Shown here: positions 1 to 18,483 of the stretch, one piece after another
Layout: each line of letters begins with the position of its first letter
How positions within the stretch are numbered: position 1 is the first letter of the stretch
Source of the DNA: Thermoplasmatota archaeon
GTDB taxonomy: Archaea > Thermoplasmatota > Penumbrarchaeia > Penumbrarchaeales > Penumbrarchaeaceae
NCBI GenBank assembly: GCA_965234725.1
Contig: CBDDUX010000075.1
Location: 1 to 18,483 of the forward strand
DNA length: 18,483 nt
Direction: 5' to 3'
Notes under the pieces: model-generated
Seen by the model: the letters and a program-made list of their open reading frames with translations, nothing else
What the model was told of the DNA's origin: nothing
The model's database searches: none
Position numbers and translations under genes: made by a program

Positions 1-82
1 CCTTTGATGTTCCGTTCTTTCCCATGTTAGTGTATGGGCTTGAAAATATATAAATATTTCAGGGTCCAAACCGAAGTTAGGA

Positions 83-155
83 TGGGCCCGTCCGGATTTG
101 AACCGGAGTCTATGCGTCCCGAACGCACAAGTATACCAAGCTAACCCACGGGCCC
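83..155 (-). tRNA. tRNA-Pro(CGG), no intron, CCA not encoded
   Basis: Reverse complement folds as a cloverleaf: acceptor GGGCCCG/CGGGCCC, D-loop AGCTTGGTA, anticodon arm GTGCG-TTCGGGA-CGCAT, T-arm TCCGG-TTCAAAT-CCGGA, discriminator A. Confidence 0.96.
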
Positions 156-179
156 ATATACATGGTTGGCGAATGAAAT

Positions 180-411: not shown

Positions 412-2664
412 CTACTTCCTCCCGTGATAGAGGGAATAAATCGCAGAAAGCAGGTGGTGGTCAACATCAACGTAAGGTAGCTCCTCTTTCAGTGTATCCT
501 TGTTTGATCCTGTCAACTCCATGATCCTCTGGAAGTTATCAGTTGCAACCTGTATCGATCCTTCTTCTGCACTCTTCAGAACATCAGTTATTGATTCCTT
601 TAACTTGACAGGTAGGTCCTGATTGTTAACAAGTGCATCAAGGAAAATCCTGTAGACCTCGGAAGCTCCCTTATGGTCTCCGATCTTGTACTTGAGGGAT
701 GCCTTTGTCACGAGGAAGTAGTATCTTAATCTTCCCTCGACAGTGTCCAGTCCCAGGTTCTCGATCGATTTCAGTGCTTCTTGGGGACCGTTCACCCTCT
801 CTTCCAGAAAAGGTCTCCATATTCGGGCACATTCCTTGATGGACATCAATGTCTCATTCCCATCATCGTTCATCCCTGAAAGTCTTACAAGTACCTTCAG
901 CGCCTTTTCATTGTTACTTTCGAGTATCTCCCACATCATATCTATGAGGTCCTTCTGGGCTTTCTCTACTGCTGAGAGAGGGGACCTCACATTCTCCTTC
1001 AATCCATTCCTGTGTTCCTTTAGAAGGTCCTTTGACGGGATCTGAAGGAAGGATTCGACCATCACAGGAAGTGCTTCCCTGGTCCTTCTCGCACCTATGA
1101 GATGATGAACCTCCTCGGTGACGTACAATGGAACAGGACCAAGACCGGATTCATCCTCGATACCGAATGGATACGGGGGAACGACACCTCCTCCCTCCTG
1201 GTGGAATCCAAGACCTGTCAGCTTATCGCTGAAAAGGTCCGCAAGCATCCCGTGGCATTCTTCCTTCTCTTCAATGGTCAGGACCTTTACCGCCTGGTCC
1301 TTTATCAGGTCATGTATCACATATCCCCCGGGGGTCTGGAAGATCAGGTGGAGGTCTATCAATTTCACCATGGTATCCTTGTCAACCTCCATCATGGACG
1401 AGAGATCGTTCTCCTCCAGCTGTAACCTTGATAACGAAAGGAGGCCCAGTACCTTCAATGAGGTCTTGTCTAGCTTGTTGAAGATCTCCTCTCTGAGGAA
1501 CTGATCGAAATCACCTACGTTGAAATTATAGCCCTCGCTTTCCACAAGTACCAGGGCCAGAGGATGTCCTCCGGTCCTGTCGATGATCGTATCGACCTCA
1601 CTGTCCCTGAATCCTCTTTCAAGGAGAAGCTTCCGCGATGTCGATCTGTCAAATCCCAGCAATTCCATCTCACCGATGAGGTTGTTGATCCTCACATCCC
1701 TTATATCATAAAAGGTGGCCCTCTTCCTCGAAAGGACGATCAGGTTGATGTTCTTTTTACCAGATATCCTGTCCTTCAGAGAAGAGAGGAACATATCGAT
1801 CTCATCAGGGGCCCTGTGGAGATCGTCAAAGATCAGAAGGACCGGTAGTGCTTGTGGAATCGTCCCGAGAAGATCAGAGAGTGTCTCAATATCAGGTTCT
1901 CTGTTGGTCTCGAGGAGTTCCTTGATCCCATCCCAGCCGGACCTTGTAAAGAAGCTGGAAAGCTCTTTCAGGACGTAGGATATGGATGTCCATTCCTTGA
2001 GGTCGATATAGAAAATGTTCATCTCAGAGGCCAGGATCTGGGTGATCTTCCATCCCAGTGTCGTCTTTCCAACACCGGCAATACCGTATACGACAGTTAC
2101 CCTTCTTTTCAATGATCTCATTGCTTCCGTGAGTTCCTTGATCTCCCTCTCCCTTCCAAGGAAGATCTCCGGTGGATTCAGGGAATGGATATAGGTTGTC
2201 CTTCCCTTAACATTGATCCCATCATCGCTGTCCCTTGATCTGTCCAGGTCAAGTTTACCTGATGAGAGGACATCAGAGATGTTCTTTAGGTCAACTTCCT
2301 TATCCAGAAGGAGGTCTCCTATGGTCTTTTCACCAGTTTCTCCTCCTTTCAAAACATCGATCGTTTCGGTGGATATGATATCTGAGAGCTCCCTGGACTT
2401 CATTATCCCCTCATCTGTGAGCATATAGACCTTTCTTCTTCTTGAAAGACCGCTGATATGGGCAAGGTTCTCCTCGACGTATCCCTTGTTCATCAGTGAT
2501 CCTACAGCCCGTGGTACCGCAGACCGGATGATCCCCAGATTGGTCGCAATTCCGTCCTGGGTGACATCGATGGGAGCCTGCAGCTCCCCCCTGAATCTGG
2601 TATAATGAATTAAAAGAAGAAGAATCCTGTCCCCTACGGTCATTCTTGAACCTTTGTATCCCAT
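412..2664 (-). CDS. Winged-HTH / STAND (NB-ARC-like) ATPase with helical C-terminus, putative regulator
   Basis: N-terminal wHTH (TQDGIATNLGIIRSAVPRAVGSL...RRKVYMLTDEG), FLGREREI, Walker A GIAGVGKTT, Walker B LLIFDDLH, GGHPLAL, MHD-like IHDLIK. Start uncertain (GTG 2691, ATG 2664 or ATG 2643). Confidence 0.85.
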   Translation of the reverse strand: MGYKGSRMTVGDRILLLLIHYTRFRGELQAPIDVTQDGIATNLGIIRSAVPRAVGSLMNKGYVEENLAHISGLSRRRKVYMLTDEGIMKSRELSDIISTETIDVLKGGETGEKTIGDLLLDKEVDLKNISDVLSSGKLDLDRSRDSDDGINVKGRTTYIHSLNPPEIFLGREREIKELTEAMRSLKRRVTVVYGIAGVGKTTLGWKITQILASEMNIFYIDLKEWTSISYVLKELSSFFTRSGWDGIKELLETNREPDIETLSDLLGTIPQALPVLLIFDDLHRAPDEIDMFLSSLKDRISGKKNINLIVLSRKRATFYDIRDVRINNLIGEMELLGFDRSTSRKLLLERGFRDSEVDTIIDRTGGHPLALVLVESEGYNFNVGDFDQFLREEIFNKLDKTSLKVLGLLSLSRLQLEENDLSSMMEVDKDTMVKLIDLHLIFQTPGGYVIHDLIKDQAVKVLTIEEKEECHGMLADLFSDKLTGLGFHQEGGGVVPPYPFGIEDESGLGPVPLYVTEEVHHLIGARRTREALPVMVESFLQIPSKDLLKEHRNGLKENVRSPLSAVEKAQKDLIDMMWEILESNNEKALKVLVRLSGMNDDGNETLMSIKECARIWRPFLEERVNGPQEALKSIENLGLDTVEGRLRYYFLVTKASLKYKIGDHKGASEVYRIFLDALVNNQDLPVKLKESITDVLKSAEEGSIQVATDNFQRIMELTGSNKDTLKEELPYVDVDHHLLSAIYSLYHGRK

Positions 2665-2740
2665 TCCCTTCTCTCCATCAAAATCTTGCACTTGTATTGA
2701 CTAATGACCCTATAAACCTGATCGTTAAAATACAGGATGA

Positions 2741-7539: not shown

Positions 7540-10329
7540 TGGTGAACTGCCAGGCACCATTGACCATGTCTCACCCAGGGGGACCTCCTCATTGGCAGTG
7601 AAGTAGGAGAAACTTGCCTGGCCCAGAGGTGAGACATGTATTGTTGTCAATACATCTCCTGAGGTCATTCCACCCGGGACATGAATGGTCCAGGAAGGCG
7701 TGGTTTCCCACATTATCAGTTCCTCACCAATAGTGTCCGGGACCTTCATTCTCGATCCTGTGGTAAGGTCCAATATGATCTGGTCCAGGATATCCACCTT
7801 ATCGAGCTTGACAAGATCATCAGTTGAAAGAGAGGGGAAAACGATCATCCTCGAGAGGTCTGGCATTTTACCACCCTGGAATGATATATGGATCCCGATC
7901 GAAAGACCATTCTCCTCCGCATAGGGAACAATACTTCTGAAAACGGTTCCAAGGTCCTTCCCGTATACATCTGGTAGAGATCTGATAACGTCTCCAAGGT
8001 CCTCCCCTATCAAGAGTACGGAAGCGGATATTGATAGGTCATCATCGGATTCCGGATAGTCCCCGGAAAGATATGGGGATGGTCTTCTCATGATATCGAT
8101 GGATAGAGTTGGAGATGCAAGGTAGGCAGAGGATAGGAGCCTGGTAACGATCTCACCTGGTTGTTTAGGCATCGAGGAGCCTTCGTTGATATTGTACCCT
8201 GCGAAATTACCGTGAACAGTGAACGTTCCCATGTCCAGGTCCAATTCGATCCTGGTACCAGACCAGAGAGCAACCTCCCCCTGGACATTCATTTCACCTC
8301 CGGAAATGGGTCCTATTTCCAGGGTACATTTTCCCTGGGGAAGCATGGATACGATCTCCATCCTGTCCCTCGCAAGGGAATATGAGAATTGAAGGTTCTG
8401 ACCGTCAATTCTCAGAGGTCCCAGGTCATTTAGGTCTATGCCAGGGACCTTGATCTTGTTGTTATAGAAGATATGGAGGTCCTCCTGGGCATCGGTGGTC
8501 CTCAACCAGGAGTCAAGTGAAGAAAGTGCTGCCATCGATGATGAATGAATCGACTGCCTTGCTTCAAGCGGTCCCAACATCTCATCGGCCCATCCGGCAC
8601 TTCTTGAAAGAGAGGATAGAGTTCCGAAGGCTTCCCTGAGCTCCAGCCATGATCTTGATTCGAAATATTCGGTGGCGTTGGCCAATGATGTGATCAACCA
8701 TCCAGTGGATGTTGGTGTGTAGAACTGCTTTCCGGAATTGATATTCCTCAGATGCTCCTTGAAACCTTCATCAACCAATGTTCCGGTCCCAGAATAGATC
8801 CTGACAGGGAATGAGAATTCCAGTGTCCTTTCCATGCTTGATGGATCATAGGTGTTGCCGGCCCATCCCACAGAATCGGCTGACAGCAGGAAGGAGCCCT
8901 TAATATCGAGGTCCCACTGGATACGGTAATCATGGTTGGGAGGCTGGGGCGGAGGTGGTATGGCCCCGCATCTGGTCACTTTATTGATCTGGCTCCCGTT
9001 CCCGGTGGCTATTAGATTCTCATCAGTCAATGACAGGTTTGCATTGGTATACCAGGCATTGTAATCATGAATGCCCTTTACAATGAGGTCCTTCCCTAAA
9101 ACCAGGAAATCAGTATCCAAGGTTGGTTTGAGCGTCCCTGCGGTCACATTGCCTGAAAGTAGCGATCCTGTTGTGATGATCGGGATCCCTTTGTACGACG
9201 TAAAGGAAGGATGGTGTTCAAGTGAATATGGATCAAATGTTTTTGCCGGCAGTCTCGGATCAAGGAGCTGGTTCTCCTTAAGTGGTGATTGAAGGTCAAG
9301 TGCCTCTGTCCTTCCAAGTGTCTTTCCGGTTCTATCCAGGTAGAGGTATCTCATGAAAAGATCTGCAGTATCGGCATGTCCGAATGTCGTTACAAGGGAG
9401 AGAAGGTCCTCTGCAGATCTCCTGACGGGATCATTGCCAGCTGACCGGCCATAATCCCTGAAGTTATCGATCTCCGACATCCCCCAATACCTGTTCCCAG
9501 AAGGGTTCATGATAGTGGCGGGTTCAAGAAGTGAGAAATGAGAGTCTATTGAAGAAGCTAGAGATGGAGGAACGGTACCGGTCCATCTTGCCATTGCAAC
9601 TGCCAGGGCGAAATTGGTCGCAAGCTCCACATCACCGCCGTTCATCAAATGCAGATAGGAATCGGAGAAATCTGTTCCTACCCCATTGGCCGCTCTCAGC
9701 CTGACTATGGTGTTAAGTATGTACTCCACATCCCTTGCCATTCTTGAATACCAAGAATTGGTATCATCTTCCAGAAGATCGATCAGGACCGAAAGAGCTC
9801 TTTCCGGGTCCAGGGTCTCTGTGGAATACGAGATGGTCTCATATCTGATCTCCCCGCCGTTCTCGGGTTCCAGGGAGATCGTCAGAATGACATTTGTCCT
9901 CAGGGCCGGGACTGCGGAAAGAGCACCGGATGACCCGAACATTCTGCTATCAGGAGTAAGGGTTCCGTCATTTTTCTCGTATCCGGATGAAGGTAAGGGG
10001 AGTTCCATTGCAAGCTGGGTCTCTGTTACAAAAACATCTTGTGAGACCAGAACCACCCTGTGATCCGGTACAAGCATTTCAGAGTTGGAGACCCAGGTAG
10101 TGAGATTGGCTTCTATATCCTTGGAAACCTCATCAGCAGTGGAGGATCCCATCTCGGAAGCAAGTGTGCCCGTAAGTGACGACATTCTCTGGGTGAAGGG
10201 TCCCAGCTCAATGGTTGGGGATGGTCTATCGGTTTCTCCGTTTGACAGGAAATAGACAGCTCCGGCACCGGTCAGTCCGATGACAAGGGCGACAGCAAAC
10301 AGCGGTCCTGCAAGATTATTGGATGACAT
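7525..10329 (-). CDS. Large hypothetical membrane-anchored/exported protein (934 aa)
   Basis: Long ORF with N-terminal TM (LFAVALVIGLTGAGAVYFL), GGAGGT RBS at 10335-10340, 14-nt overlap with the upstream gene. Confidence 0.8.
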   Translation of the reverse strand: MSSNNLAGPLFAVALVIGLTGAGAVYFLSNGETDRPSPTIELGPFTQRMSSLTGTLASEMGSSTADEVSKDIEANLTTWVSNSEMLVPDHRVVLVSQDVFVTETQLAMELPLPSSGYEKNDGTLTPDSRMFGSSGALSAVPALRTNVILTISLEPENGGEIRYETISYSTETLDPERALSVLIDLLEDDTNSWYSRMARDVEYILNTIVRLRAANGVGTDFSDSYLHLMNGGDVELATNFALAVAMARWTGTVPPSLASSIDSHFSLLEPATIMNPSGNRYWGMSEIDNFRDYGRSAGNDPVRRSAEDLLSLVTTFGHADTADLFMRYLYLDRTGKTLGRTEALDLQSPLKENQLLDPRLPAKTFDPYSLEHHPSFTSYKGIPIITTGSLLSGNVTAGTLKPTLDTDFLVLGKDLIVKGIHDYNAWYTNANLSLTDENLIATGNGSQINKVTRCGAIPPPPQPPNHDYRIQWDLDIKGSFLLSADSVGWAGNTYDPSSMERTLEFSFPVRIYSGTGTLVDEGFKEHLRNINSGKQFYTPTSTGWLITSLANATEYFESRSWLELREAFGTLSSLSRSAGWADEMLGPLEARQSIHSSSMAALSSLDSWLRTTDAQEDLHIFYNNKIKVPGIDLNDLGPLRIDGQNLQFSYSLARDRMEIVSMLPQGKCTLEIGPISGGEMNVQGEVALWSGTRIELDLDMGTFTVHGNFAGYNINEGSSMPKQPGEIVTRLLSSAYLASPTLSIDIMRRPSPYLSGDYPESDDDLSISASVLLIGEDLGDVIRSLPDVYGKDLGTVFRSIVPYAEENGLSIGIHISFQGGKMPDLSRMIVFPSLSTDDLVKLDKVDILDQIILDLTTGSRMKVPDTIGEELIMWETTPSWTIHVPGGMTSGDVLTTIHVSPLGQASFSYFTANEEVPLGETWSMVPGSSPSPLW

Positions 10330-14280: not shown

Positions 14281-14332
14281 TGCATATGTTTTATGCAAGA
14301 TTATAAATATGCATATGTATTATAATCATTAT
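14281..14332 (+). promoter_or_regulatory. TA promoter with candidate autoregulatory palindromes
   Basis: TTATAAATA (14301-14309) about 25-30 nt before ATG 14333, flanked by TGCATA-n5-TATGCA (14281-14297) and ATATGCATAT (14307-14316). Confidence 0.55.
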
Positions 14333-14527
14333 ATGTCAGAAACAACGACAATACGCATCAGCACCGAGGTCAGGGATAGCCTGAAGGGACTTGGAAACAT
14401 AGGTGATGATTACGATGCGGTGATAGACAGATTGATCAGAGAACATAACAGAGAGAGTTTGGTCCAGTATTCAAGGAAGGTCGTAGAAGAGAGGAAGGAG
14501 GATTTTGTTGACATCGACGACCTTTAA
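14333..14527 (+). CDS. Ribbon-helix-helix-type antitoxin
   Basis: TTTIRISTEVRDSLKGLG..GDDYDAVIDRLI, acidic tail EDFVDIDDL, overlaps the downstream RelE-like gene. Confidence 0.82.
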   Translation: MSETTTIRISTEVRDSLKGLGNIGDDYDAVIDRLIREHNRESLVQYSRKVVEERKEDFVDIDDL

Positions 14528-14792
14528 GGTCCTTGTCCTCCCTGAACAACTTCGGGATATTCCCCCCTCAAGGGAGAGGGAGATCAAGGAGGCTATAAGG
14601 GAATTGAAGGAACCATATCCGGGTATTGGTAGGGGAGATAAGAAACTGATCAGAGGTTCCAGGGATGTAGTATACCGATTGCGTAGTGGTGAATACAGGA
14701 TCTTCTACAGGATCGAGAAGAGGATGAGGATCGTTTATGTATTTGACATTCTCAATCAGGATGCAGCTCATAAGAAATATGGAAGATTGTAG
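14508..14792 (+). CDS. relE: RelE/ParE family toxin
   Basis: About 94 aa, basic, with KEPYP..GDKKLIRG...YRLRSGEYRIFYRI....VYV. TTG start (14505 or 14508) after GGAGG. Confidence 0.88.
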   Translation: MTSTTFKVLVLPEQLRDIPPSREREIKEAIRELKEPYPGIGRGDKKLIRGSRDVVYRLRSGEYRIFYRIEKRMRIVYVFDILNQDAAHKKYGRL

Positions 14793-14886: not shown

Positions 14887-15003
14887 GTCGGGGTGGCTCA
14901 GCTTGGTGGAGCGCCGGACTCATAGGGGCCCTTGTGGCTATACGTGAGCTCCCAAGTACCCGGAGAAATCCGGAGGTCGCGGGTTCAAACCCCGTCCCCG
15001 ACA
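14887..15003 (+). tRNA. Elongator tRNA-Met(CAT) with a 43-nt intron at 37/38 (14925-14967)
   Basis: Acceptor GTCGGGG/CCCCGAC, D-arm GCTC..GAGC, anticodon arm CCGGA-CTCATA|A-TCCGG, T-arm GCGGG-TTCAAAC-CCCGT. BHB-like junction CTCA/GGAG with TAG and AAA bulges. Confidence 0.95.
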
Positions 15004-15051
15004 CCTTTTCTTAATAAGCCAGACACATCTCATTTTGTTGGTTTGTCCCCC

Positions 15052-15059
15052 TTTTTTTT
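15052..15059 (+). terminator. Oligo-T tract, possible archaeal terminator after tRNA-Met
   Basis: T8 run about 50 nt downstream of the tRNA. Confidence 0.4.
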
Positions 15060-15135
15060 AATACACTATTTATGACGATACAATTGCACACAGTTTACAG
15101 TTAATTACAAATAATGTTAACTCTGTACAACAATC

Positions 15136-15333
15136 ATGACATTGGCAACAAAGAGGATTCCTGTCACCGAAGAAACCCTTGATTTGATCAAAGGTTTAGG
15201 TCACAAAGGTCAGACCTATGATGATCTCCTACAGGAGATGGCAGAAGCCTATCGAAGAGAGAAATTCCTAAGGATGCTGAAAGAAAGGCGAGAAGAGGGG
15301 GATTTCGTGGACTTCGACGAGGCATTTGAATGA
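15136..15333 (+). CDS. Ribbon-helix-helix-type antitoxin (similar to 14333-14527)
   Basis: TKRIPVTEETLDLIKGLGHKGQTYDDLL, tail EGDFVDFDEAFE, ATGA overlap with the toxin. Confidence 0.83.
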   Translation: MTLATKRIPVTEETLDLIKGLGHKGQTYDDLLQEMAEAYRREKFLRMLKERREEGDFVDFDEAFE

Positions 15334-15602
15334 CCTATAGTCTTAAGGTTGAAAAAAGAGCAATCAAAGAAATGAATCTCCTTTCAAAGAACATTCAAGA
15401 TAGGATTAAAGAGAAGATCAAAGTAACACTAGTTGAAAACCCATTTCCAACAGGGGATAATGATATAAAGAAAATCAAGGGATCAAAATTCTGGAGATTG
15501 CGGATTGGAGAATATCGAGTATTCTTTGATATTGATCAAGAAGATAATATCGTTTATATCCTTTCAATAAGACATCGTTCTAAAGCCTATAGAGAATTGT
15601 AA
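15330..15602 (+). CDS. relE: RelE/ParE family toxin
   Basis: MTYSLKVEKRAIKEM...ENPFP...IKKIKG..FWRLRIGEYRVFFDI...IVYILSIRHRSKAY. Confidence 0.92.
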   Translation: MTYSLKVEKRAIKEMNLLSKNIQDRIKEKIKVTLVENPFPTGDNDIKKIKGSKFWRLRIGEYRVFFDIDQEDNIVYILSIRHRSKAYREL

Positions 15603-15614
15603 ATAGGTAAGTTG

Positions 15615-15795
15615 AGGCCCCCGAAGGGACCCTTTCTTCCTTTGCTCCTGTTCATCTCTCTTGAAGGCATCCAGAAGAGATAATATCATGTTGGGTATCG
15701 TTTTTGACATCTTGGAGGTCACTACCTCCAAGGTAAGGAAAATCTCTGATTTTCTGGAAGTTTTGAGTCTGTTTTCAAACCATGTCCCCGACACT
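15615..15795. repeat. Conserved ~180-bp non-coding element, copy 1, ending in a tRNA-Met 3'-end copy (19/21)
   Basis: Aligns to 18027-18205 with 35 substitutions and a 2-nt gap by hand count. The last 65 nt have only 4 mismatches. Confidence 0.92.
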
Positions 15796-15798
15796 TTA

Positions 15799-16001
15799 CT
15801 ACCATTGCTATGCAATGGTAGATAGTATTTGCTGGTGACGTAGGGGTCCTCCGAGTGGAAGATCGATGTGAAATTGGTCCAAGGCGAGGAGGCCTGAAAA
15901 ATCTTTGATTTTTCAAAGGTTGAACCCTTGGGTGGTTGAGCATTTGAAATGTGTAATCGACGATCTAAAATGCTCAACCTGAGCAAAACCGAAGGTTTTG
16001 C
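15799..16001. repeat. Gene-less cluster of perfect inverted repeats
   Basis: CTACCATTGC-tat-GCAATGGTAG (15799-15821), TGAAAAATC-ttt-GATTTTTCA (15895-15915), GGTTGAGCATTT..AAATGCTCAACC (15934-15979), GCAAAACC-gaa-GGTTTTGC (15983-16001). Confidence 0.88.
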
Positions 16002-16030
16002 GGAATCAAATTCTAATTAGAGTGAAAGAG

Positions 16031-16052
16031 AACCCCGTCCCCGACACCTTTT
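16031..16052 (+). repeat. att-like copy of the tRNA-Met 3' end plus downstream bases
   Basis: AACCCCGTCCCCGACACCTTTT identical to 14988-15009 (22/22). Confidence 0.92.
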
Positions 16053-16148
16053 GGTTTGATTACGGTACCATATAGTTAGACCCCGTCACCTCAGCGGTTG
16101 GAACCTACACCTCTACTTTAAGCAGGAATGAGTCTATTTTCGTAAATA

Positions 16149-17108
16149 TCAATTCGTATGTTTTTTCAACTGAGATAATCTCCATTTTACAACTGGATGA
16201 TCGACAAGATTGTTTTTAATATCAATATCCTCAAATAATAATTTCTGATCGAACTGGTGTTCATCATAGTATCTATCGAGAAACATCTTCTCATTATTAG
16301 AAAATGAAAGTATCATATCTACAGTTTCAACACATCTTTGTTTCATCTCATCAAGATCGATCCTGTGATCTCCTCTTTTCATCATCGGGATCAGGAAACG
16401 TTTGATATCTCTTTGGTCAATGCCTCGGATCAGATCTGAATTCATCTTTCTTACATCTTGAGGGGTCAAGCAAAGATTAAAGATTGTAAGTTTTCGATAG
16501 ATATCTTTATCGATTGATTCCTGATCCACTGAAAGATAATAGACATCAAAAAGATCTCTGGGTGTTGCACGAGTTATCAAAGCTCTGGTTTTCTGAGCTA
16601 CCAATTCATTATAGGAGAATGTTGAAAACTCAAAATCACCAAGAATATCAAAAGGATGGTTCACTCTTCTTTTTACAACTGGTAGAAAAGGAATTCTTTC
16701 GGAAAAATTGATCTCAACCTTCACTCTGTCTCTATTCCCTGTAACATCGTCATAAGCGATGATGTATTGTTCCATGGAGTGGTTTGATTCCTGCTTCTCA
16801 AGATCATAATGGAATTCTCTGAAGATCCTGTGGAGAAAGATGTCAATCTTCTCCCTATCTTCCATCATCTCATCTCTATCCAGACTTCCAATGTAGTTCA
16901 GGTCAATATCAACAGATAACCTTCTGATATCCTTGTACATTAATTGTAATGCGGTCCCGCCTTTCAAGAGGAATTTATCTTCAATTCCAGGACCTTTGGA
17001 GATCGTCTCAAGTATTTCAACAAGCCTGTATACCTTTTCAAGAGGGGACCTGATGAAATCTGTTTCCCGAGAAACATTTTCAATGTATTTTCTATCGGGT
17101 TCAGGCAA
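16149..17108 (-). CDS. abiEii: AbiEii-family nucleotidyltransferase (type IV TA toxin)
   Basis: LEKVYRL, LKGGTAL, RLSVDIDLN, KVEIN, K.RAL..R..PRDLFD. TTG start overlapping the antitoxin stop. Confidence 0.9.
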   Translation of the reverse strand: MPEPDRKYIENVSRETDFIRSPLEKVYRLVEILETISKGPGIEDKFLLKGGTALQLMYKDIRRLSVDIDLNYIGSLDRDEMMEDREKIDIFLHRIFREFHYDLEKQESNHSMEQYIIAYDDVTGNRDRVKVEINFSERIPFLPVVKRRVNHPFDILGDFEFSTFSYNELVAQKTRALITRATPRDLFDVYYLSVDQESIDKDIYRKLTIFNLCLTPQDVRKMNSDLIRGIDQRDIKRFLIPMMKRGDHRIDLDEMKQRCVETVDMILSFSNNEKMFLDRYYDEHQFDQKLLFEDIDIKNNLVDHPVVKWRLSQLKKHTN

Positions 17109-17916
17109 ATCTCCTCATCTCCTCGATATTCTTTGGCACTATCAGATTCCATTCCTTGTTTAATTCAACAGATGTCATTTTCAATCTGGGTTGCAGATAA
17201 TATGTCCTTTTCATCTCAGAAGACCTTAACTCGTCGAGAACTTCTATTGGAACATCCATGGTATCTTTTAGTATTGTAAGAATATATCCTGTTCTCCGGA
17301 TAAGGCTCTGTTCTTGAAAAGTATACAGATAATCTAGTAATTTCTTGAAATCCAACTTGTGGAATGTACTGATACTCTTGATCACCTCTTCGATCCCTCC
17401 TCCTTGATCAACAGATCTTATGCAATCCAGGCAAGTTCTCTCCCTATCAGTCACAGGGATCTTGATGCCTTCCCTCATGATCTCCTTTATTCCGAATAAA
17501 TTCTTATTGTTGATATAATAATATTCAACGTTCTGAAATTTAAAGTTCTTGTGACGAAATGAACTGATGAAATAAACCATGTTAAAATATGAATTGGCCA
17601 CGCCATGAAGTTCTAATGCAGAGTGGAAACCGAATGCTCCGTCAATACTCCCAACTTTATAACAAATTAAGTAACGATCAGGTTCAAATCTCGATCCCAG
17701 GTCATCTGGGGGAACACCTGCATAGGTTCCTCTGTATACTCTTATAGCATATCCCTTCTTGACCAGTCGAGTAAGTGTTGATCTTGTTGTATCATAGTTA
17801 TTGGATACCTTTGAGATCTCCTCCAATGAACTTACTTTCTTCTTCACAAGGTAAATATATATACGATGTTCATTTGGAGTAAGCATTACGTCATTTGTGT
17901 TGTATGTAGATGTCAT
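17101..17916 (-). CDS. abiEi: AbiEi-family antitoxin / transcriptional regulator
   Basis: N-terminal wHTH (LTRLVKKGYAIRVYRGTY), FHSALELHG, VTDRERTCLDC, GGIEEV, RRTGYIL, WNLIVP. Start ATG 17916 (17886 possible). Confidence 0.88.
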   Translation of the reverse strand: MTSTYNTNDVMLTPNEHRIYIYLVKKKVSSLEEISKVSNNYDTTRSTLTRLVKKGYAIRVYRGTYAGVPPDDLGSRFEPDRYLICYKVGSIDGAFGFHSALELHGVANSYFNMVYFISSFRHKNFKFQNVEYYYINNKNLFGIKEIMREGIKIPVTDRERTCLDCIRSVDQGGGIEEVIKSISTFHKLDFKKLLDYLYTFQEQSLIRRTGYILTILKDTMDVPIEVLDELRSSEMKRTYYLQPRLKMTSVELNKEWNLIVPKNIEEMRRFA

Positions 17917-18009
17917 GTATACAAATAGCACAATAAACGTAATGGATTAAATAATTTACTTCTCCGAATGTTCCGATTGCATCTGATTTGTATACAAATG
18001 GAACAATAA
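17916..18009 (-). promoter_or_regulatory. abiE promoter with two candidate operator repeats
   Basis: TGTATACAAATAGCACAATAA (17916-17936) and TGTATACAAATGGAACAATAA (17989-18009), 19/21 identical. Perfect palindrome ATTTGTATACAAAT (17986-17999). Minus-strand TATTTAAT at 17946-17953. Confidence 0.6.
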
Positions 18010-18026
18010 GAGAAATAATGAAGGTT

Positions 18027-18205
18027 AGGCCCCCGAAGGAGCCCTTTTCCTTTACTCCCGATCATCTCTCAGATCGGCATCTCAGAGAAATTCTTTCATT
18101 TTTTATACCTTTTTTGACATCTTTGAGGCGCATGCCTCGAAGGTAAGGAAAATCTTTGATTTTCTGGAAGTCTTGAGTCTGTTTTCAAACCCCGTCCCCG
18201 ACACT
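18027..18205. repeat. Conserved ~180-bp non-coding element, copy 2, ending in an exact tRNA-Met 3'-end copy
   Basis: TTCAAACCCCGTCCCCGACAC at 18184-18204 equals 14984-15004 (21/21). The remainder aligns to 15615-15773. Confidence 0.92.
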
Positions 18206-18286
18206 CATACATTATTTGGGTATTATATTAGATTATTAAGCTATTTCTCGATGTCGAGTACGAAACTCGAACCTGTCACCTTATTT

Positions 18287-18433
18287 TTAATTATGAATCT
18301 GCTCATATGCTTGCTTTTCTTCTTCACGAGGACCTGTTTCTTCTGGAGGAACTTCCTCTTTTTGTTTCATATCTTCAGGTTCTTGTTGTCCTTTCTTCAT
18401 CAAGAAAAGGATAGCTCCAATCCCAATTCCTAT
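18287..18433 (-). pseudogene. Possible C-terminal remnant of a membrane-anchored protein
   Basis: Reads IGIGIGAILFLMKKGQQEPEDMKQKEEVPPEETGPREEEKQAYEQIHN-stop (part of a TM helix plus charged tail). In-frame TGA at 18464-18466 and no start codon upstream of the hydrophobic stretch. Confidence 0.45.
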
Positions 18434-18483
18434 CTGGAAAGGCTCACAACATCGTTTACCTTTTCATTTTGATGTTTTTGGCT

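Follow-up and report, generated by a model that had tools for sequence, protein, structure and literature searches.

What maintains a group of small hairpins behind a transfer RNA gene when the letters of their stems are not maintained? This question is raised by an array of cassettes, mostly toxin-antitoxin modules, that an archaeon of the Thermoplasmata type carries behind its tRNA(CAU) gene. Within the window (the whole stretch of 18,483 nucleotides that was analysed), an end element of about 190 nt, here called RE, is found twice. The two copies line up as direct repeats, 79% identical across 159 nt and 80% across a further 35 nt (mean column identity 85% in alignment A1), and each terminates with a 21-nt duplicate of the 3' end of the tRNA gene, a claim of the initial annotation that the repeat and core searches confirmed. 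The reading favored here, at about even odds (probability near 0.5), is that RE is the cis-acting end, comparable to an attP arm or an attC site, of non-autonomous cassettes, and that it would act as a folded strand with an enzyme supplied in trans.

The tRNA gene is the anchor of the array, and its last 21 nt (14984-15004) are the core that is repeated downstream. Its intron-bearing form is missed by ARAGORN but found by Rfam. Four core copies, at 14988, 15778, 16031 and 18188, are present in the window, and both RE copies adjoin one of them. The features are listed in Table 1; RE was annotated on the minus strand because pairing is better there.

Table 1. Coordinates of the array and its components in the window
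Feature	Position	Strand	Remarks
tRNA(CAU), Met by anticodon	14887-15003	+	45-nt intron; Rfam RF00005, 54.1 bits, E 2.1e-9
Cassette A (790 bp)	15005-15794	+	Antitoxin, toxin, RE copy 1, core
DUF7557-type antitoxin	15136-15333		Cassette A; Pfam
ParE-family toxin	15330-15602		Cassette A; Pfam
RE copy 1	15601-15794	-	Core at 15774-15794, differing from the tRNA core in 2 positions
Hairpins of RE copy 1	H1 15615-15632; H2 15654-15681; H3 15711-15732; H4 15738-15754; H0 15765-15782		Plus-strand coordinates
Cargo-less "mid" mini-element (253 bp)	15795-16047	.	Ends with perfect 17-nt core copy 16031-16047
Cassette B (2157 bp)	16048-18204	-	LE-A, AbiEii, AbiEi, RE copy 2, core
Left-end module LE-A	~16053-16115		Cassette B; common to two L007 cassettes, 78% mean column identity
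AbiEii	16149-17108	-	Cassette B; Pfam
AbiEi	17101-17931	-	Cassette B; Pfam
RE copy 2	18013-18204	-	Perfect core copy 18184-18204
Hairpins of RE copy 2	H1 18027-18044; H2 18064-18091; H3 18121-18142; H4 18148-18164; H0 18175-18192
Left-end module LE-B	18205-18300	+	Alignment A6, 70% mean column identity

Comparison with related genomes revealed how these units arose. The contig L007 carries a 15.6-kb array with 7 detectable cores, whose cargo includes ParE/DUF7557, two AbiEi/AbiEii pairs, DUF2202 and unassigned proteins; a homologue of cassette A (92% over 291 nt) sits elsewhere in this array. In L007 the core of the mid mini-element joins directly to the sequence that follows RE copy 2 in the window, and cassette B is absent; the same two places are 2157 bp apart in the window. 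A second contig, L022, has the same tRNA with different units downstream. These comparisons show that the units between tRNA-end copies are insertions. Pairs of occupied and unoccupied sites are thus present in related genomes, each insert lies between direct repeats that match the tRNA 3' end, and the tRNA gene stays intact. The G+C content is 0.45-0.53 upstream of the tRNA and drops to 0.37-0.39 downstream. A casposon or a MITE with terminal inverted repeats and a target duplication was rejected, as the cassette ends are not mutual inverted repeats. In two of the MAGs, pieces of the array and the tRNA locus lie on separate contigs.

The opposite ends of the cassettes also contain conserved modules, which carry core-like half-sites. 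LE-B comes after a core copy in the window, L007 and L002 and contains a near-palindrome with such half-sites; as the window ends at 18483, LE-B may open either a further unit or the flank. If a cassette were circular, RE, the core and the left end would together make a composite site of about 290 bp. In one L007 cassette the terminal core (7835-7851) comes without RE, and nhmmer detected the core alone there.

A search with nhmmer gave 10 matches with E<=2e-10, which lie on the window, L007 and L002, and L019 was additionally found at 2.8e-8. The resulting set contains 11 copies from 4 genomes, nine of them beyond the window and from three related Thermoplasmatales MAG contigs. Three of the 11 are short forms without H3 and H4, which makes these two hairpins dispensable for persistence at a cassette end. 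Neither the short forms nor the cassette array and the mid mini-element had been noticed in the initial annotation. RE matched no RNA family in Rfam 15, a search that the initial annotation had called for: only the tRNA reached its gathering threshold, and the 10 other matches at E<=10 scored 12.7-21.7 bits against cut-offs of 37-80. The segment 15603-16060 had no match in the plasmid and phage collections.

RE is also non-coding. A 140-aa minus-strand frame (15564-15986) runs open through copy 1 and is interrupted by stops in copy 2, as had been noted earlier; among the 6 full RE copies no open reading frame is common, every frame being stopped in at least 4 of them. A coding role was therefore rejected, also in the form of a leftover piece of a split integrase gene of the SSV type; the changes, which are compensatory within stems and not codon-like, speak against it as well. 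Two readings based on the tRNA-derived sequence were likewise rejected. A retroelement primer-binding site does not agree with a repeat that ends short of the CCA complement. For a tRNA-like minihelix or the 3' half of a split tRNA, the required 5' acceptor strand is missing from copy 2, and its presence in copy 1 is due to chance. The tRNA sequence duplicated downstream amounts to 21 nt only, which also counts against a minihelix or a split-tRNA half.

The conserved property of RE is its structure. All four hairpins described in the initial annotation (H1 to H4) were located by reading of the sequence and by folding, and their reported differences between the two window copies held: a G-U wobble shifts within the cUUCGg hairpin according to the arm comparison; H2 exists as two different sequence versions, each of which folds; the closing pair of H3 changes from T-A to C-G, with one pair better on the plus strand, in the pair table; and H4 differs solely in the loop. 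Folded as minus strand, the two copies had z-scores of -3.46 and -2.14; for the plus strand the values were -0.99 and -1.77. Folding beyond chance in these two copies alone is modest evidence; the additional copies provide the stronger evidence. In alignment A2, 85.3% of 299 cells were paired, versus 33-51% when the partners were slid, and 11 pairs were altered on both sides, versus 2-6. None of 500 shuffles equalled the observed pairing or covariation score, although such controls overstate independence because copies of the same array are related and mosaic, and the sample comprises, besides the window genome, MAG contigs of only 3 other genomes.

The individual hairpins differ in how they are conserved. 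In H3, both sides have changed in 6 of 9 pairs, with 95% paired; RNAalifold independently predicted H3 and H2 and found no conserved long-range pairing. Every fold of RE consisted of 4-5 separate local stem-loops. Since MAFFT staggered the arms of H1, this hairpin was counted from arms extracted by script and from a 5-row subset (A4), in which 35 of 35 cells were paired. A hairpin of at least 7 bp was present at H1 in 10 of 11 copies, with 8 distinct stems among these 10, and arms swapped between copies gave full pairing in only 9.5% of 84 combinations. H4, by comparison, is a perfect palindrome conserved in sequence. The stretch of about 45 nt next to the core is conserved in sequence, whereas in the outer 4-5 hairpins the pairing is conserved and the sequence is not. 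The spacing between hairpins and core is fixed and gap-free in A2.

These patterns bear on an explanation in which the copies are decaying arms of integrated plasmids or viruses without integrase genes, and the hairpins are incidental inverted repeats or palindromes bound by proteins on double-stranded DNA. Neither decay nor binding by a sequence-specific protein would be expected to keep pairing despite sequence change, as seen in H3, H1 and the inner part of H2, while the perfect palindrome H4 is what a protein-binding site would look like. The units measure 0.25-2.2 kb and, among the ORFs tested in the window and L007, include no replication or virion genes; the same end module stands beside unrelated cargo. 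Archaeal elements are described in PMC8371274 as integrating in tandem and as losing their integrase genes, and according to PMC5861418 the integrase of the archaeal virus SNJ2 targets the 3' end of tRNA-Met; both facts agree with such an origin. On the whole, this explanation appears very improbable.

The sequence comparisons support selection for the folding of a single strand, preferably the minus strand. This part of the initial annotation stood, on the covariation in 11 copies of 4 genomes and on the excess of G.U pairs on the minus strand: 42 versus 16 on the plus strand, or 11 there without one doubtful outer pair. In H1 the ratio is 8:0 (minus to plus), and H3 is without strand bias (2:3). 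With RNA energy parameters, the minus strand had the lower energy in 7 of 9 copies; with DNA parameters both strands folded equally well and the asymmetry was gone.

This dependence on RNA parameters, together with the G.U excess, is in favor of an alternative, in which RE encodes a small minus-strand RNA. It would begin with a stretch antisense to the tRNA 3' end, continue with H0, H4, H3 and H2 and finish with H1 as a terminal cUUCGg hairpin. This RNA could be a regulator, or a guide and scaffold for a protein that recognizes the tRNA-end target, a layout that recalls the guide RNAs of mobile elements. The H1 loop is UUCG on the minus strand in 4 of 11 copies, a loop that is stabilising above all in RNA, and T-rich sequence is found beyond H1 on this strand in several copies. 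In addition, two copies (L7c and L2a) have a decayed core beside intact hairpins with compensatory changes of their own, suggesting a function in place, for example as RNA, that may exist besides recombination. The promoter, however, would need to be located beyond the right edge of the core and hence inside the following unit, where at least 3 unrelated sequence types occur, and TATA-like sequences within RE are found in only one of the two sequence variants (A2); the promoter scan, which looks for bacterial sigma-70 sites, is uninformative for an archaeon. The absence of an Rfam family and of a nuclease or recombinase partner gene among the cassette ORFs of the window and L007 is also unfavorable, and the antisense stretch is more simply explained as a duplicated att core. 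An RNA gene is an unlikely explanation of RE; the setting, with its unit end, tRNA-end core and insertion polymorphism, fits a recombination site better.

Hairpins that outlast a decayed core would also be accounted for by RNA punctuation, in which they are terminators, insulators or 3'-end stabilisers that travel with each cassette and shield its transcription from that of adjacent units, and recombination needs only the double-stranded core and its flanks. H1 is G+C-rich, and in all copies a conserved T-rich tract adjoins its plus-strand 3' side; a perfect hairpin at 15799-15821 was flagged as terminator-like. H1 itself, however, was flagged in neither window copy by the terminator scan, and in 5 of 10 copies its plus-strand form is short by 1-2 pairs. 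T tracts are the main determinant of termination in archaea, and 4-5 hairpins exceed what termination needs. The cargo reads toward RE in 5 of 10 cassettes, as punctuation would have it, and away from it in the other 5; from this even division it follows that RE is not an appendage of cargo expression. The fixed spacing points instead to coupling of the hairpins with the core, and punctuation as their main function seems quite improbable.

Under the preferred reading, that of a cis-acting recombination end, a cassette would consist of a short left-end module, cargo in either orientation, RE and a 17-21-nt core equal to the tRNA(CAU) 3' end. Site-specific recombination would insert it into the tRNA 3' end or into a pre-existing core copy, and each entry would regenerate the tRNA and extend the tandem array. 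The recombinase, encoded elsewhere, would be supplied in trans. Protein recognition may be the task of the core-adjacent stretch, judging from its sequence conservation, and RE probably works as a folded single strand, with better pairing on the strand antisense to the tRNA. It would then be a recombination site, or possibly a processing or replication site, once that strand is exposed, with a putative part for each hairpin. In this sense RE may be a functional analogue of the integron attC, though not an attC.

The analogy with attC, already drawn in the initial annotation, is favored by the setting of RE and not by its form. The site lies at the end of an insertion unit and next to a tRNA-end core, and its structure is conserved more than its sequence, with one strand favored, as in attC. 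As in integrons, the arrays consist of small units that lack a recombinase gene and have a single structured site, placed at one end, and toxin-antitoxin modules are prominent in the cargo. An attC site, however, folds into one long imperfect hairpin from its two halves, with the motifs RYYYAAC and GTTRRRY at opposite ends; this pair was found in none of 9 copies on either strand, and RE forms 4-5 separate stem-loops instead of a single long hairpin. Thus, attC proper was rejected. Unlike in integrons, the crossover would take place in a 17-21-nt stretch copied from the tRNA 3' end, a tRNA gene and not attI beside intI anchors the array, the cargo lies in both orientations, and no IntI-like gene was seen in the 14.8 kb upstream of the tRNA or in the L007 array.

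Tandem accretion without an integrase is known from cis-mobilizable elements beside streptococcal ICEs and from the Dehalococcoides islands at the tmRNA gene. There, too, direct repeats of a gene 3' end bracket the units, which build up in tandem with the integrase of another element. Those elements are bacterial and usually much larger, and to our knowledge a covarying multi-hairpin arm is not described for them. In the accessible text of the archaeal integron paper of Ghaly et al. 2022 (PMC9668308), neither tRNA nor Thermoplasm is mentioned. Closer in host and target are the pleolipovirus SNJ2, which targets tRNA-Met with its own integrase and accessory proteins (PMC5861418), and elements of the SSV/pTN3 type, in a group for which tandem integrations by tyrosine integrases are known (PMC8371274). 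Like the array, these have an archaeal host, an att core that is the 3'-distal part of tRNA(Met) and a regenerated tRNA; unlike the array, they carry their own integrase. The accessible text of the review PMC8371274 does not mention hairpins or single-stranded sites.

A recombinase was searched for by Pfam in 84 ORF submissions in total. No integrase-type domain was found in 20 ORFs of the window, covering 14.8 kb upstream of the tRNA; in 20 ORFs of L007; in 26 ORFs of L022, L019, L002, L016, L024 and L007; or in 18 tRNA-adjacent ORFs of 13 loci (12 of them new to the search), where the ORFs with Pfam matches were ordinary chromosomal genes and three were without match. Unassigned ORFs were blank in NCBIfam and PHROGs, and Atlas described two more as transporter-like and a possible beta-propeller, with no recombinase. 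Among the ORFs tested, an integrase gene was thus found neither whole nor split, nor did any excised circle or junction read come to light. As none of the tested cassettes codes for a recombinase, the enzyme has to be supplied in trans if the cassettes move as proposed.

Cassette arrays with structured recombination sites have so far been a hallmark of integrons, and archaeal integrative elements have been described with their own integrases and simple att cores. No description of arrays such as the present ones was found in the open-access literature searched. A wider proposal, tentative and on the doubtful side, is that some Thermoplasmata possess an integron-independent platform for cassette capture at tRNA(CAU), in which defence and toxin-antitoxin cassettes would bear a strand-specific site of several hairpins joined to the tRNA-end core, and an unlinked recombinase would insert, excise and shuffle them on the folded strand; in a variant, a minus-strand transcript with tRNA-antisense guide and scaffold would direct the reaction. 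A family of integrase-less cassettes with a covarying, strand-biased end at a tRNA gene would be a new archaeal route for collecting and shuffling defence and toxin-antitoxin genes, and it would set a concrete search problem, namely to find the recombinase that recognizes a folded strand together with a tRNA-end core. RE with its core is in any case a practical marker for delimiting cassettes in Thermoplasmata genomes, where such repeats break assemblies.

The cargo-less mini-elements recall another group of folded sites. The filamentous phage CTX and other elements that exploit Xer have a folded single-stranded attP; in the mini-elements, a core, a hairpin spacer and an inverted core-like copy are present, and folding of a single strand would rebuild the duplex core. 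The target here is a tRNA gene and not dif, and at the left ends of RE-bearing cassettes the inverted core was not seen (scores of 4-7 in most). Among all flanks, 6 of 28 scored 10-15 for such a copy, versus a shuffle maximum of 10. The mid mini-element of the window contains a perfect 10-bp hairpin, a truncated inverted core-like stretch and further hairpins, including one similar to H4; the perfect hairpin after the core of copy 1 (15799-15821) is the one with the terminator-like flag. Homologues are found in L007 at 15396-15574 (93%) and in L022 at 9569-9779 (70%). With folding z-scores of -5.39 on the plus and -7.16 on the minus strand, this mini-element is more strongly structured than the RE copies.

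The DNA upstream of the tRNA(CAU) gene has a chromosomal look (adenylosuccinate lyase, CinA, SNO amidotransferase, a radical-SAM protein and surface proteins) and is syntenic, at ~70% nucleotide identity, with the Thermoplasmatales MAG contig L022. G+C content passes from 0.45-0.53 before the tRNA to 0.37-0.39 after it, and the downstream DNA is a series of units, each closed by a core, a copy of the tRNA 3' end. The tRNA gene itself was missed by ARAGORN. Its last 21 nt recur as the final bases of each of the two end elements (copies 1 and 2, the former with two mismatches), and a further core closes the cargo-less unit, which brings the window total, tRNA included, to four.

Coordinates of the array, its relatives and neighbouring features
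Feature	Location	Details
tRNA gene, anticodon CAU	window 14887-15003	45-nt intron; Rfam 54.1 bits
Unit	window 15005-15794	DUF7557-type antitoxin and ParE-family toxin, then copy 1
End element copy 1	window ~15601-15794	direct repeat of copy 2; non-coding
Unit	window 15795-16047	cargo-less, very strongly structured (z -5.39 and -7.16)
Core of cargo-less unit	window 16031-16047	
Unit	window 16048-18204	AbiEii and AbiEi (minus strand), then copy 2
End element copy 2	window ~18013-18204	direct repeat of copy 1; non-coding
Left-end module type 1	window 16053-16115; L007 7757-7834, 5820-5897	78% mean column identity
Left-end module type 2	window 18205-18300; L007 15300-15395; L002 1023-1118	70% mean column identity
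Cargo-less segments	window 15795-16047; L007 15396-15574; L022 9569-10000; L016 10022-10234; L003 10022-10191; L004 9078-9196; L025 9854-10000	
Orphan H3-H4 module	L007 2268-2226	immediately after a core
C/G-rich hairpin	L007 6060-6100	14 bp, in place of H1
Off-tRNA array piece	L019 8070-10120	
Pre-core stretch TCTGGAAGTC	window 15750-15775, 18160-18185	
tRNA segment TCCGGAGGTC	window 14969-14985	anticodon stem/variable loop
Second DUF7557 and ParE pair	window 14309-14792	immediately upstream of tRNA(CAU)
28-nt direct repeat, 82%	window 17916-17943, 17989-18016	between AbiEi start and copy 2
29-nt repeat, 97%	window 129-157, 288-316	
tRNA-Pro(CGG) gene	window 80-156	minus strand
STAND-type ATPase gene	window 412-2691	

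The cassettes between tRNA-end cores are insertions. L007 is the end of contig CAWEDU010000013.1. There the cargo-less segment, with its core, passes directly into the sequence found after copy 2 in the window (alignment A6, of sequences following core copies); in the window the two are separated by 2157 bp, precisely the length of the AbiE unit with copy 2 and a single core. The same tRNA is followed in L022 by two different small units. Among tRNA-adjacent ORFs at 13 loci, those matching Pfam are ordinary chromosomal genes and three are unmatched. Far inside the L007 array, with a different neighbour and a short-form end, is a cassette homologous to the ParE cassette of the window (92% over 291 nt), and the nearest relative of copy 2 (90%) is an L007 copy with unrelated cargo. 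Because end-element similarity does not track cargo, the family of cassettes, which have the right-end element in common, is mosaic. The second toxin-antitoxin pair, upstream of the tRNA, also looks inserted, since L022 has only ~110 nt there against ~610 nt in the window; it has neither end element nor core copy.

A scan of genome contigs with the core as pattern gave 25 loci, of which nearly all carry the label Thermoplasmata or Thermoplasmatota and none is from the window's own genome; the relatives are MAG contigs throughout. The end-element profile gave 10 matches at E<=2e-10 (window, L007, L002) and one at 2.8e-8 (L019). The L007 array extends over 15.6 kb with seven detectable core copies, three full-length end elements, two short forms and one cut by the locus end, and it carries a homologue of the window's cargo-less segment. 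Its cargo comprises ParE/DUF7557, two AbiEi/AbiEii pairs, DUF2202, several unknown proteins and a surface-protein cluster, and one cassette ends in a core without an end element. Short forms (3 of 11 copies) are missing ~50 nt with hairpins H3 and H4 (columns 49-100 of A2, the ten-copy alignment). The piece absent from them is the orphan H3-H4 module of L007, whose left boundary, GACAT then CTTGGAGG, is identical to the boundary within full elements. Possible explanations are a separable H3-H4 block and a secondary crossover point at GACAT.

Copies 1 and 2 are 79% identical over 159 nt and 80% over 35 nt in the repeat search, with 85% mean column identity in pairwise alignment. The four hairpins described in the initial annotation were all found in both copies, by sequence and by folding, with the differences stated there; they are numbered H1 to H4 from the cargo side, and a fifth, H0, reaches into the beginning of the terminal repeat. 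The frame reported as open through copy 1 is indeed interrupted by stops in copy 2. A protein-coding role was rejected, as no frame is open across all six known full-length copies. By themselves, the two copies have folding energies that are only moderately unusual, with z-scores of -3.46 and -2.14 for the minus strand and -0.99 and -1.77 for the plus strand.

The structure of the end element is under selection. In A2, set in minus-strand orientation with analyst-specified helices H0, H4, H3 and H2, 85.3% of 299 cells are paired versus 33-51% with partners slid 1-3 columns, 11 pairs changed on both sides versus 2-6 after sliding, and the observed pairing or covariation score was reached in 0 of 500 shuffles, controls that overstate independence among related copies from four genomes. 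H3 is the clearest helix (both-side changes in six of nine pairs, 95% paired, five different stems in seven copies), and RNAalifold, given no structure, predicted H3 and H2 with 17 pairs, seven showing compensatory change. H1 could not be placed in a single alignment, and its arms were extracted by script. Ten of the 11 copies show, in the same position, a hairpin of 7 bp or more, with eight distinct stems; each of these 10 pairs 7/7 with its own partner arm, and of 84 cross-copy combinations of arms 9.5% are fully paired. In a five-copy alignment, 35/35 H1 cells are paired.

The preference for minus-strand folding proposed initially holds overall, with the non-Watson-Crick positions of the helices reading as G.U 42 times on the minus strand and 16 times on the plus strand (11 if one doubtful outer pair of H4 is excluded), and fails for H3 (2:3); the ratios are 18:3 in H0, 14:4 in H2 and 8:0 in H1. 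Strand-biased mutation could contribute to this asymmetry. With RNA parameters the minus strand is lower in energy in seven of nine copies, and its H1 loop is UUCG in 4 of 11; DNA parameters give no difference between the strands. The end element matches no family in Rfam. An end element acting as a minus-strand RNA appears unlikely. The outer hairpins are preserved as pairs only, and a single-stranded form is therefore implied. Our preferred reading, to which we give overall a probability of about one half, is that the exposed minus strand is a recombination, processing or replication signal; its single-stranded DNA part is more doubtful. That the cassettes carry the element as transcriptional punctuation seems somewhat less probable still than the RNA. 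Hairpins are intact beside decayed cores in two copies, which favours some function in place.

A recombinase encoded elsewhere would join a circular cassette to the tRNA 3' end or to an existing core of the array. Circularisation would bring end element, core and left end together as a single ~290-bp site. The ~45 nt adjoining the core are conserved in sequence and gap-free, as expected of a protein-binding arm. No integrase-type domain was found in the ORFs tested, and to that extent the cassettes are without a recombinase. Integron cassettes, one of the closest analogues, resemble this system in the logic of their arrays, in having structured, strand-specific sites and in their toxin-antitoxin cargo. 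Their attC sites have paired end motifs and form a single long hairpin. The end element was rejected as an attC: it has several local hairpins, and the paired motifs were found in 0 of 9 copies. The other closest analogues are the tandem accretion of integrase-less elements at bacterial tRNA/tmRNA genes and archaeal integrases targeting tRNA-Met, such as that of SNJ2 (PMC5861418). Neither tRNA nor Thermoplasmata is named in the main text of an archaeal integron paper (PMC9668308), and a review of archaeal tyrosine recombinases (PMC8371274) covers tandem integration and not hairpin or single-stranded sites. No account of a tRNA-anchored cassette array with a hairpin-rich end element turned up in the literature searched, and plasmid and phage collections gave no end-element match.

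Some cassettes also have left-end modules in common, which hold core-like half-sites. Both types follow core copies and carry a CCCGTCACC-like motif, in appearance the core with a deletion; type 2 is a near-palindrome of ~31 nt. In many Thermoplasmata-type loci, the tRNA 3' end is repeated 70-210 nt downstream of the tRNA(CAU) gene, and the cargo-less segment enclosed is very strongly structured, as measured by the z-scores in the window. Several cargo-less segments start with a perfect 10-15-bp hairpin, different in sequence in each genome, followed by an inverted core-like copy able to pair with the tRNA end (6 of 28 flanks score 10-15, where shuffles reach at most 10). The cargo-less unit of L016 is tandemly duplicated.

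The pre-core stretch of both end elements resembles a segment of the tRNA gene, and the end-element profile gives weak matches (E 0.003-0.01) to the part of tRNA genes at other loci that precedes the core; att homology may formerly have spanned the entire tRNA 3' half. The C/G-rich hairpin of L007 is followed by a tRNA T-arm-like sequence, GGGATTCGAACC, which hints at a former association with a different tRNA target. In two MAGs (L019 and L002), array pieces that include end elements are on different contigs from tRNA(CAU), in L019 as a short copy and core downstream of a histidine-kinase gene; these reflect either assembly breaks at repeats or use of secondary sites. The 28-nt repeat is plausibly the operator of the AbiE promoter, which is subject to autoregulation by AbiEi. 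The first copy of the 29-nt repeat overlaps the tRNA-Pro(CGG) gene in its 5' part and the second, 159 nt away, stands beside the STAND-type ATPase gene; this repeat may be the trace of another tRNA-gene integration.
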